From Candidatus Hermodarchaeota archaeon (lineage in GTDB: Archaea > Asgardarchaeota > Lokiarchaeia > Sigyniarchaeales > SOKP01), in NCBI GenBank assembly GCA_048885525.1, contig JBHLLP010000012.1, positions 24,785 through 88,784 of the forward strand: a DNA stretch of 64,000 nt, read 5' to 3'. The notes beneath the pieces were generated by a model that worked only from the letters and a program-made list of their open reading frames with translations, was not told the origin of the DNA and ran no database searches. This document shows positions 37,321-41,091 of this stretch, one piece after another. The position numbers and the translations under genes were made by a program. The number at the start of each line of letters is the position of its first letter. Position 1 is the stretch's first letter.

Positions 37321-38226
37321 TTGAATTTTGTAGACAATTCAGCTTTATATGAATTAATAAATAACCCACAGAAAATCTCTGCACTAAAATTTGATATTAT
37401 TTTAAATATCATAAAGACATTTAAATGTATTTTAGAAAAAGAAAATTTACTCTTGGAGGTTAATTTTAAAGAAAAAAAGGAAGAAGCTTATGTAATAGGG
37501 GATATACATGGAAATTTGGAGACTTTAACAAAATTGATTGAAATAATTAACCATAAAAATCCAAAAATCATCATTTTTTTAGGAGACATTGTCGATCGTG
37601 GACCAAAACAATTTGAATGCTTAATGATAGTCTTAATTTTAAAGATTCTTCACCCATCAAAATATTATTTATTAAGAGGAAATCATGAAACATTAGAAAT
37701 GAATGAATATTACGGTTTCTTTCAGGATTTTATTTCAAGATTTAAAAATCAGAGCAAATTCAATGAAATTTTGAGTATTTATAATCTAATACCGATATGT
37801 GCATTAATTAATAAAGCAATATTATGTTTGCATGGAGGGATTCCAGAGGATTTTGACATTTTAAAAAAATTGCAAGGTCAAAGATGCATGAACTTTAAAG
37901 AAGTTTTCAATTTAAATATGCAAGGGATTTATCAAATTATGTGGAATGATCCTAAATCTGGATTAGAAGGATTTTCAGACAGTTTTAGAGGTCCAGGAAT
38001 TAAATTTTTTGGATATGATGTTTTTGAAAATTTTATGAAATATAACAATCTTAAATACATAATTAGATCACATGAATGTTTTTCTGAAGGATATCGATGG
38101 TTTTTTAACAAAAGATTATTATCTATATTTTCATCCGCAAATTATCGAGGATTTTATAGTCCAAATCCCGCATCTTATGCAATAATAAGAAATAATGAAA
38201 TAGTTCCAAAATTATTGGTTTTATAA
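37321..38226 (+). CDS. PPP-family Ser/Thr protein phosphatase
   Basis: GDIHG, GDIVDRG, LRGNHE, HGG, WNDP, RG, IIRSHE, IFSSANY. Confidence 0.93.
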   Translation: MNFVDNSALYELINNPQKISALKFDIILNIIKTFKCILEKENLLLEVNFKEKKEEAYVIGDIHGNLETLTKLIEIINHKNPKIIIFLGDIVDRGPKQFECLMIVLILKILHPSKYYLLRGNHETLEMNEYYGFFQDFISRFKNQSKFNEILSIYNLIPICALINKAILCLHGGIPEDFDILKKLQGQRCMNFKEVFNLNMQGIYQIMWNDPKSGLEGFSDSFRGPGIKFFGYDVFENFMKYNNLKYIIRSHECFSEGYRWFFNKRLLSIFSSANYRGFYSPNPASYAIIRNNEIVPKLLVL

Positions 38227-38308
38227 AACTATGATAAATCATAGATTCATTAATTTGGGAAATTTGATGCTAAACATAAGGAATAAGTAACACAAATTCC
38301 CTATAAGA

Positions 38309-38572
38309 TTAAGTAATTTGAGAAGCATCTGGCTTAATAAATAAGAGATTATTACCTCGAATAAATATCTCGTTGTATTTAGCCACAGGAGTTCCTTCTA
38401 ATAACTCCGTAGCCTCTTCAAGAATCATATTCATGTATGCATCTATTTCCTTTAATAATCCTCTATATTCAGTTCCATCTTTTAATCTGAGAAGTATAGT
38501 TGAACCTTGCGCATTCTGGAGTATTGTTAACGGATTCTTTGACCTTTGCTGAGTATTATTTTTATTTGACAT
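38309..38572 (-). CDS. Sm/Lsm RNA-binding protein
   Basis: PL..L, LKDGTEYRG.L...DAYMNMIL (Sm1), IFIRGNN (Sm2). Confidence 0.93.
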   Translation of the reverse strand: MSNKNNTQQRSKNPLTILQNAQGSTILLRLKDGTEYRGLLKEIDAYMNMILEEATELLEGTPVAKYNEIFIRGNNLLFIKPDASQIT

Positions 38573-38683
38573 TTTTAATTCTTATATCAAAAAATTATTA
38601 TTATATTTATTGAAAAGATAATTTAAAGATAGAATTTTTTGAATTAAAACCTTACGACATAAAAAATAAGAGCTAAAATTTAT

Positions 38684-39301
38684 TTGGTTATCATTGTGGA
38701 AGAACACTTTAAAAATAAAAATAAAAAGAAAACCATAATAGAAAAATACAATTCATCATCGCATTTTTATGACAAAAGGTACAAGGCACTACAAAAAGAA
38801 AAATATGAAATAATATTAAAAAACTACATAGCTAATGGAAAAACTATCTTAGATCTAGGGTGTGGTACTGGTTTATTTTTTGAATATATAGTATTATCGT
38901 TAAAGAAGCAACATGAAATAAGAATTAACTACATAGCATTAGATATCTCTAGGAATATGCTATTACGTTTCAAATCCAAGGTTATATTTCATAATATAAA
39001 ATCTATAAATTTGATACTATCAGATATTGAACATTTACCTTTCAGAGATAATATTTTTCATTCAATTTTTTCAATTACTTCTTTCCAAAATTTACCACAT
39101 ATTCAGATTGGAATCAGAGAATCATTTAGGGTAAGTAAAAATAATGCAGAGTATAAATTTTCAATATTAAGAAAAAAAATAGAATTGCAATTGTTATTAA
39201 AAATATTTAAACCTAAGATTAAAGAAATAGAAATAATAAGTAAAGAAAATCTAGAAGATATTATAATTCAAGGAAAAATTTCAAAAGATCAAGCAATTTA
39301 A
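38684..39301 (+). CDS. Class I SAM-dependent methyltransferase
   Basis: YD.RY, ILDLGCGTG, LDIS..ML, DIEHLPFRD. Exact start uncertain. Confidence 0.88.
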   Translation: MVIIVEEHFKNKNKKKTIIEKYNSSSHFYDKRYKALQKEKYEIILKNYIANGKTILDLGCGTGLFFEYIVLSLKKQHEIRINYIALDISRNMLLRFKSKVIFHNIKSINLILSDIEHLPFRDNIFHSIFSITSFQNLPHIQIGIRESFRVSKNNAEYKFSILRKKIELQLLLKIFKPKIKEIEIISKENLEDIIIQGKISKDQAI

Positions 39302-39303
39302 AT

Positions 39304-40182
39304 TCATTTTTTATAAAAATAGCTAAGGATCTTATCCATATTACTTTCAATGTTAAACTTTTTTTGAAAATACGTACATATATTCTCAAGATCCCTCTCC
39401 AAAAGTAAATTAGCATTAGGATGGTCAGTTGGAACCCATTGCAGCCAATCAATTATTAAAATATTGCCTTTCTCATCCAAAACAACATTGAATTCACCCA
39501 AATCACCATGAATCATTTTTGCTTTTTTATAGATTATTCTGTATTGTTTTATAATTCTATTGAAAATTTTGATAGGATTTTTAATACTTTTATAATAAAC
39601 CAATTCTTTTCCTCTTAGATATGACATTACAATAATATGTCTATTATAGGCTATTGGTTTTGGAGTGTTAAGTTTGAGTATATAGATTTTTTCAAGAGCT
39701 TCATATTCTTTTTTGGCAGCAAGCCTATTTACATAAAGCCAAGAAAGATGTGATCTCTCTCCAATAATGTCTCTAAGTTGTTTGATGCTTTTAAAACTTG
39801 TTCTTCCAATTCGATAAAATTTAGCAGCATAAATGTTTTCATCATCATCCATACAACTATAAACATCTGATTCTTTGCCTTTACCTATTAAAGGCCCTAA
39901 TTGACTAATGACATTTTTTTCGACTAGGGTATGTAAAGCAAGCAAATCATATGCCTTAGAATTAAGAGTATAAGCAATTTCATACTTAGAGGCATCTCTA
40001 ATTATTAGCCCGAGCTTATGAACTTTTTTCAACCGAAAAAGAGTCTCTTCCATCTTATATCTTGAATAAAATTTTATATTGTTGACTGTAACATACTCGG
40101 ATCTTTTCATTCCAATTTCAATTGCCATAAGTATTCTTAGATCTTCCTTTTCCAATTCAGTAAGAAGATTTGCTACTTCCAC
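39304..40182 (-). CDS. rio2: RIO2-type Ser/Thr kinase
   Basis: N-terminal wHTH (DLRILMAIEIGM), GKGKESDVY, GRTSF, HGDLGEFNV, IDWLQ. Confidence 0.93.
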   Translation of the reverse strand: MEVANLLTELEKEDLRILMAIEIGMKRSEYVTVNNIKFYSRYKMEETLFRLKKVHKLGLIIRDASKYEIAYTLNSKAYDLLALHTLVEKNVISQLGPLIGKGKESDVYSCMDDDENIYAAKFYRIGRTSFKSIKQLRDIIGERSHLSWLYVNRLAAKKEYEALEKIYILKLNTPKPIAYNRHIIVMSYLRGKELVYYKSIKNPIKIFNRIIKQYRIIYKKAKMIHGDLGEFNVVLDEKGNILIIDWLQWVPTDHPNANLLLERDLENICTYFQKKFNIESNMDKILSYFYKK

Positions 40183-40194
40183 ACTTTTTTCAGC

Positions 40195-40977
40195 TTAAAA
40201 TATGAATTTACGATATGTTTTGAAAAAAGATATTAATTTATATATATTTGGTATTTCAAAAATCAGAATTGCAGTTAAAACTAAAAGCAAAAAGACTGAG
40301 ATATCTTTCTGTAATATTAAATAATTAGTTAAAGTCCAACCTTCTTGAAATAAAAATAAAAAAATACCTTGGTTTAGATATATAAATAATCCAACTGAGA
40401 TAATGAGACTAATTAATGAGAAAATTATAACTTGATGTTCATTTTCAATAAATCCAATTATAATGTTAATGATAAATAAGATTATTGTAATTAATGTAAT
40501 AATTTTTGAAAGATTAATCCAATTCGTGTAAATTATACTACTCACCTGATAAGTTCCATTTGAAATTGGCCAAAATAATGATGTACTTAAATTTATAAAA
40601 GACAAAATTGGTAAAACTACCCCAATGATTATTGAAATACTATAAATCCGTATTGTTGTAAATTTGTTGAATTTCAATATATTCTCCTTTCCCAATTTTG
40701 TAGATTCTAACAGATAATTAAGTTTGTTTTGAATCTCAATTGGAAAATTCTTTTTTACCATGACAATTTGGATGCTTATTTCAGGAAATTTCGAAACTAA
40801 TTCGTTAATTTGGCTATATGCTTTCCTAAATTTTGTTTTCTTACTTTTAGGACCGTTCCAAAGATAAATAATTTCCTTTTCTTCATCCAATACGGCACAA
40901 ATATCGTGTGATAGTAGTTGATGTTCTACTTCTATCCAAAAAGATTTAGAATCATCAAATATAAAAGTTCTCAGCAT
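40195..40977 (-). CDS. Gelsolin-like domain fused to about 4 transmembrane helices
   Basis: aa 1-90: LLSHDICAVLDEEKEIIYLWNGPKS..KA matches the gelsolin-repeat pattern; four hydrophobic stretches in the C-terminal half. Confidence 0.7.
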   Translation of the reverse strand: MLRTFIFDDSKSFWIEVEHQLLSHDICAVLDEEKEIIYLWNGPKSKKTKFRKAYSQINELVSKFPEISIQIVMVKKNFPIEIQNKLNYLLESTKLGKENILKFNKFTTIRIYSISIIIGVVLPILSFINLSTSLFWPISNGTYQVSSIIYTNWINLSKIITLITIILFIINIIIGFIENEHQVIIFSLISLIISVGLFIYLNQGIFLFLFQEGWTLTNYLILQKDISVFLLLVLTAILIFEIPNIYKLISFFKTYRKFIF

Positions 40978-41091
40978 TTATAGTCTACTTAACTTAACTA
41001 AAATTAGCTTTTATTTTTTTCGATGACATATTAACGCTCAAAAAGAGAAAAAAAAATTATAAATTTTACTCATCCTTTGAGATTAGTAGAA

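Follow-up and report, generated by a model that had tools for sequence, protein, structure and literature searches.

Actin-filled protrusions and crawling have been described in cultured Asgard archaea (PMC9834061, PMC13716822), and such protrusions are known from Candidatus Lokiarchaeum ossiferum (PMC13716822). The Asgard gelsolin architectures reported so far, ProGel, 1DGelX and 2DGel, include none that spans a membrane (PMC7444086), and actin is bound by every architecture tested, that is, by all three of these (PMC7444086, PMC9433394). ProGel binds actin loosely, on the filament side and in a cofilin-like orientation, and affects actin only at very high concentration, while gelsolin-like domains without actin binding also exist, for example in Sec23 (PMC7444086). 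In L. ossiferum, nine GH-domain proteins were reported in 2026, five of them in the Lokiactin Co-IP, and no transmembrane one is mentioned (PMC13716822); this Co-IP is biased against membrane proteins, according to the preprint of the same study.

The gene described here lies in the window, the whole stretch of 64,000 nucleotides that was analysed, and its product joins a gelsolin head to a four-helix membrane domain (Table 1). This is a new domain architecture of a known fold, and it is real and conserved. No description of an integral-membrane gelsolin, or of the L. ossiferum accession given below, was found in open-access full text and bioRxiv, and an earlier mention is possible; within these sources, the statement of the initial annotation that no integral-membrane gelsolin has been characterised holds. 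That annotation had placed the open reading frame at exactly the positions found, omitting the strand, which is minus; the plus strand across the same interval is full of stops. An A-rich, TATA-like stretch lies about 30-45 nt 5' of the ATG, suggesting that the gene may possess its own promoter, and it is probably co-transcribed with rio2.

A word-indexed search of 5.8 billion proteins gave 211 homologues at E<0.01, nearly all of exactly 260 aa, with identities of 53-80%, from Asgard MAGs, and annotated throughout as "hypothetical protein". Among 1.84 billion cluster representatives, searched exhaustively with HMMER, 76 clusters (formed at 50% identity) were matched, and even the distant ones (20-34% identity, 270-340 aa) align end to end. 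The core alignment has 22 invariant columns and zero internal indels. Given this number of homologues, the full-length clusters and the indel-free core, the gene is, by the evidence of these alignments, real and subject to purifying selection. A scan of the protein against NCBIfam matched no family. Within the genus, the gene diverges much faster than its flanks, copies sharing 57-78% identity compared with 82-88% for rio2 and 82-91% for porB.

Table 1. Positions of the gene, of the parts of its product and of related loci; numbers without an L prefix are window positions.
Feature	Position	Strand	Basis or remark
Whole gene	40195..40977	(-)	260 codons plus stop, ATG start; ORF list and translation
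Gelsolin-fold head, aa 1-95	40693..40977	(-)	AlphaFold2 model, Foldseek, VIA, profile against PDB, Pfam, hhalign
Linker, aa 96-105	40663..40692	(-)	short, flexible, basic; family consensus K/R-F-S-R-F
TM helix 1, aa 106-135	40573..40662	(-)	AlphaFold and hydropathy
TM helix 2, aa 147-177	40447..40539	(-)	AlphaFold, conservation; preceded by outer loop 1
TM helix 3, aa 181-201	40375..40437	(-)	AlphaFold, conservation; preceded by short, predicted cytoplasmic turn I-E-N-E-H-Q
TM helix 4 and basic, predicted cytoplasmic C-terminal end, aa 223-259	40201..40311	(-)	AlphaFold, conservation; preceded by outer loop 3
Spacer, porB stop codon to ATG	40978..41091	(-)	114 nt, AT-rich, gene start 3' of porB; from sequence reading
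rio2 (RIO-type kinase)	39304..40182	(-)	begins 12 nt past the end of the gene; Pfam Rio2_N and RIO1
PP1-type metallophosphatase, LSM protein, SAM methyltransferase, rio2	37321-40182		last two convergent
Host Lokiactin-type actin	L001:1480-2601	(-)	own genome
Canonical 2DGel, 335 aa	L004:1447-2454, contig C25	(+)	own genome
Subfamily B loci	L020:1498-2349 (L. ossiferum B-35 chromosome); L036:1492-2337	(-)	
Third, divergent copy with adjoining genes	L047:601-3722		one sister genus
G058 ORF	L022:955-2091	(-)	begins mid-head at Y-I-W-N-G-P-K-S, then linker and start of TM1

A family-profile search over 400 genomes of the phylum (Asgardarchaeota) found full-length members in 133/153 genomes of the window's own order of Lokiarchaeia, with 114/134, 1/1, 14/14 and 4/4 genomes positive in its four families; outside the order, only the gelsolin domain was matched. 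The distribution across Asgard genomes, which the initial annotation had proposed to check, is thus that of a full-length family confined to one order. One apparent exception, from another family of the phylum (genome G058), was rejected as a truncated half-domain with an EamA-type transporter. Its first strands are missing, the reading frame continues as a ten-helix EamA/DMT-type transporter and the upstream DNA does not hold the first half of the head, so it was judged a rearrangement remnant or an assembly chimera and gives no evidence of wider distribution. A "long form" of 488-496 aa in one genus was likewise rejected, being no fusion but a divergent copy and a CDP-alcohol phosphatidyltransferase read through the stop.

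Two subfamilies can be distinguished. Subfamily A is the 260-aa form of this window, and stands in a rigidly conserved block of porD-porA-porB, the membrane-gelsolin gene, rio2, a methyltransferase gene on the opposite strand, and LSM. The order and orientation of the genes at 37321-40182 are kept even where the membrane-gelsolin copies are only 55-59% identical. Members of subfamily B have 270-320 aa and an extra charged, predicted cytoplasmic tail with the motif S-K/R-P-T/S-I-L-R/Q-D-K, in its extended form S-K/R-P-T/S-I-L-R/Q-D-K-x-P-V, which faintly recalls the Asgard WH2-like motif L-K/R-D/R-V without matching it. Their gene adjoins the TFIIB gene (tfb), directly downstream, in both contexts examined. 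Candidatus Lokiarchaeum ossiferum B-35, counted within the same order, has a subfamily B member (UYP46179.1, NEF87_002464, 283 aa, "hypothetical"), and another is encoded by Candidatus Harpocratesius. A third, divergent copy of 263 aa was seen in one sister genus, between the TBP gene and that for a CDP-alcohol phosphatidyltransferase, an enzyme of lipid head-group synthesis; the latter starts 34 nt past the copy, and a Rab-like small GTPase is encoded just downstream. No cytoskeletal gene, actin included, was adjacent to the subfamily A or B copies examined, and since the neighbours are housekeeping genes, the neighbourhood was rejected as a clue to function.

Profile, fold and motif evidence combine to identify the head, in its modelled form, as a gelsolin-homology domain that is genuine though divergent and belongs to the ProGel type. 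In the AlphaFold2 model of the protein (mean pLDDT 82), it consists of five strands (residues 2-8, 13-17, 26-31, 36-41 and 70-74), forming a sheet between a long helix (47-62) and a shorter C-terminal one (80-95), which is the arrangement of the gelsolin fold. The top match of a Foldseek search against the PDB was Thorarchaeota ProGel (7c2f_B; E 4e-4, TM 0.74 by target, rmsd 2.7 Å), and the top 50 were gelsolin, villin, adseverin, CapG, severin or fragmin, and one ADF protein. VIA, which is independent of Foldseek, aligned 84/88 residues with 7c2f_D (Z 10.5, rmsd 2.3 Å). When the family profile was run against PDB sequences, 7c2f_B again came first (E 0.0012), followed by villin V3, gelsolin G3, CapG and adseverin A3. 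Comparison of the head profile with the genome's own 80-aa ProGel-like protein by hhalign gave a probability of 91%, and a search of the ESM Atlas independently led to a cluster of 97-aa "gelsolin-like domain" proteins from Promethearchaeota. Pfam Gelsolin (PF00626) scored 13.1 bits with the full protein and 15.3 bits with the head alone, short of its gathering threshold of 21 bits; among 28 relatives it was matched in 17 at E<1, also below threshold (best E 1.3e-4), and no other family recurred comparably in that scan. Foldseek, VIA, profile, Pfam and hhalign therefore agree on the gelsolin fold that had been proposed for the N-terminal domain.

The gelsolin-repeat pattern that had been noticed at aa 1-90 is indeed present, as L21-L-S-H-D25...L30-D31...I-Y38-L-W40-x-G42-x-x-S45...A53, and W14, E16, D25, Y38, G42 and P79 are kept in at least 96% of 46 aligned homologues. 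A WxG after strand D is the signature used to recognise gelsolin domains (Akil et al. 2022). The head carries it as Y38-L-W40-N-G42, with G42 in 98% and Y38 in 96% of the 46 homologues, and it aligns with the WxG of the genome's own gelsolins.

Thorarchaeota ProGel (PDB 7c2f chain B/D; Akil et al. 2020, PMC7444086) is likewise a single Asgard domain of the gelsolin/cofilin type, about 90 aa long, and has the fold and the WxG in common with the head; both lack the canonical residues of type I and type II calcium sites. ProGel, however, is a soluble, stand-alone domain of about 80-95 aa, whereas in the present family four TM helices follow the head in every member as a conserved domain, and the identity between the two heads is only 19%. 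Binding of actin by ProGel is known from a crystal structure, whereas that of the present head is predicted from its fold. The 2DGel and 1DGelX proteins of Thor, Loki and Heimdall archaea (PMC7444086, PMC9433394), which belong to the same host lineage as the present protein, and the genome's own 2DGel share with the head a gelsolin homology domain in which the core reads Y-x-W-x-G and the strand-helix junction E/x-P-x-E-F/I. 2DGel consists of two domains and carries both a WH2-like motif (LKDV) and the D/E/D residues of the Ca2+ signature, in contrast to the one domain of the present head, which is without a calcium signature; 1DGelX has a soluble coiled-coil X domain, and neither has TM helices. 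The domain fold is also that of eukaryotic gelsolin, villin, adseverin and CapG (PF00626), but these are soluble proteins of three to six repeats that are regulated by Ca2+ and PIP2, and the present protein scores below the threshold of their Pfam family. ERM proteins and talin couple cortical actin to the plasma membrane, and do so as peripheral adaptors that bind separate transmembrane receptors. The job proposed here would be alike, but the folds are unrelated, and in the present family the actin-type module and the membrane span would form one polypeptide.

Calcium sites of gelsolin domains are recognised by an Asp and a Glu (type II) and by an Asp (type I), following the signatures of PMC9433394. 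In the alignment, the type II columns are an Asp before strand C and a Glu at W+9, and the type I column is an Asp at W+21. Domain 1 of the genome's own 2DGel, aligned with the head, has D, E and D in these columns. In the present protein the column before strand C holds C27 (or has no Asp in register), the type II Glu is replaced by K49 and the type I Asp by V61, so that the loss of acidic residues described in the initial annotation is borne out by comparison with a gelsolin of the same genome. The genome's own ProGel-like protein is likewise without the signature residues. The invariant pair H24-D25 is displaced by one or two residues from the canonical Asp, and a Glu at W+9 does occur in part of subfamily B, the L. 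ossiferum protein included.

The hydrophobic segments that had been placed at roughly aa 110-135, 157-177, 183-202 and 227-243 match both the hydropathy peaks and the four AlphaFold helices. Residues 90-99 are modelled with pLDDT <50, but the TM part (aa 106-259), folded alone with 46 sequences, gave a pLDDT of 94.9 and a pTM of 0.87, as a bundle of four helices running up and down, and outer loops 1 and 3 each contain a short strand. The strand of loop 1 (142-146) lies beside that of loop 3 (218-222), a loop (aa 202-222) that carries a conserved G-I-F-L-F-x-F-Q motif. W136 and W153 at loop 1 are conserved, and Y200 of TM helix 3 is nearly invariant.

The topology of the protein is predicted to be N-in/C-in, with the head placed in the cytoplasm by charge bias. 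Residues 100-111 have a K+R of 2.5 and a D+E of 0.0, and the C-terminal tail a K+R of 3.8 and a D+E of 0. Across the subfamilies, K+R is 2.5-2.9 in the linker before TM1, 1.7 in loop 2 of subfamily B and 3.0-11.3 in the C-terminal tail, whereas few K/R and an excess of acidic residues mark outer loops 1 and 3; a positive-inside bias is thus seen in both subfamilies. By hydropathy, the N-terminus has neither a signal peptide nor a hydrophobic signal-like segment in either of them. Charge distribution and the missing signal peptide together argue that both ends are cytoplasmic, as the initial annotation had expected of the N-terminus, and the long charged tail of subfamily B points to C-in, from which N-in follows for a protein of four TM helices. 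An extracellular head (N-out), acting at the cell surface and not on the cytoskeleton, can be imagined in general terms, but the same three features, the N-terminal sequence, the distribution of basic residues and the tail of subfamily B, all speak against it and make it highly improbable.

The membrane part may be more than the "anchor" label suggests, because in these alignments the bundle matches the head in conservation (mean column identity 49% and 48%, respectively) and its best-kept positions, W136, W153, Y200, F208, F210, I221 and D225, are at the outer ends and loops. Compared across subfamilies, the head is kept no less well than the TM part: identity between subfamilies is 25% for the head and 21% for the TM part, and within subfamily B it is 38% and 27%, which counts in favour of the actin reading preferred below. 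It could be argued from the conservation of the bundle, from the outer position of the best-kept residues and from a model at pLDDT 95 that the four-helix domain carries the activity, acting for instance as a small channel, as part of a transporter, in lipid handling or as an organiser of the surface layer, with the head appended for regulation or assembly. This seems unlikely, as N171, E178, E241 and N244, which are polar residues within the membrane in subfamily A, are lost in subfamily B, the domain was never found without a head among the 76 clusters, and its structure matches no channel or transporter fold above generic helical bundles. Searches with VIA (whole model), Foldseek against the PDB and the ESM Atlas returned for it only designed or generic four-helix bundles, the best VIA match being a de novo bundle (Z 14.5), and Foldseek with the TM domain alone gave no PDB match below E 0.3. 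The absence of a specific relative is no proof of a new fold.

The host genome (3.58 Mb; completeness 99%) has genes for a Lokiactin-type actin, which shares about 90% identity with the actins of other Lokiarchaeia, and for five soluble gelsolin-domain proteins, and the partner system is therefore present. In the canonical 2DGel, the WH2-like motif LKDV lies between the two domains; the protein also has an acidic linker and, at its C-terminus, a zinc-ribbon-like (Cys4) module, CxxC...CxxC, a layout equal to that of the Loki 2DGel of PMC9433394. Co-folding of the head with the host actin gave a score of 0.00, which was counted neither for nor against binding.

The reading preferred here, with a probability of about one half, is that the protein is a calcium-independent, membrane-fixed actin-binding module that tethers filaments or regulates them locally. 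It is favoured because the characterised Asgard gelsolins bind actin and because the membrane would raise the local concentration of the head; actin binding is plausible given the fold and given what other Asgard gelsolin domains do. A ProGel-type head free of calcium sites would sit in the cytoplasm, some ten residues from the membrane, on a conserved four-helix bundle. Its contact with Lokiactin would probably be weak and, as for ProGel, made with the side of the filament. Avidity would come from being held at the membrane, at a high local concentration beside cortical filaments, and perhaps also from oligomerisation, and actin would in this way be tethered or locally regulated under the membrane.

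Several observations lower confidence in a role with actin. On the long helix, the face turned to the solvent is basic in subfamily A and acidic or mixed in subfamily B, so that a common, helix-mediated contact with actin is not obviously conserved, and the residues kept across the whole family, W14, E16, H24 and D25, are specific to this family and are not known functional positions of gelsolins. To these are added the sub-threshold Pfam score, the low identity to ProGel, the very high concentration at which ProGel itself acts on actin, the lack of linkage to cytoskeletal genes, the existence of non-actin binders of the Sec23 type and a co-folding score that gives no verdict. The fold may instead have been turned to a non-actin partner, as happened with the gelsolin-like domain of Sec23/24, making the protein a membrane scaffold or receptor for a cytoplasmic protein or for lipid head groups. 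All of the sequence features just named would suit such a role, as would the lack of cytoskeletal linkage and the position of the divergent third copy beside a CDP-alcohol phosphatidyltransferase and a small GTPase. However, the nearest structural and profile matches of the head are actin-binding gelsolins and not Sec23, and all tested Asgard gelsolin domains bind actin (PMC7444086), so that a non-actin partner is regarded as a possible, though less probable, explanation.

Published Asgard actin regulators are soluble profilins and gelsolins, and the attachment of filaments to the membrane is a question that this family may address. A conserved gelsolin-type head on a membrane span offers a concrete hypothesis for such attachment, and one that is open to testing in a culturable organism, as L. 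ossiferum has a member of the family. A stronger version, at present speculative and rather doubtful, is that the protein is a direct link between Lokiactin and the membrane in Lokiarchaeia, a transmembrane tether made of one polypeptide whose conserved outer face contacts surface structures. If this were true, actin forces could cross the membrane as protrusions form and cells crawl. Even with a head that does not bind actin, the family would still show that the gelsolin fold was recruited to a membrane protein before eukaryotes arose.
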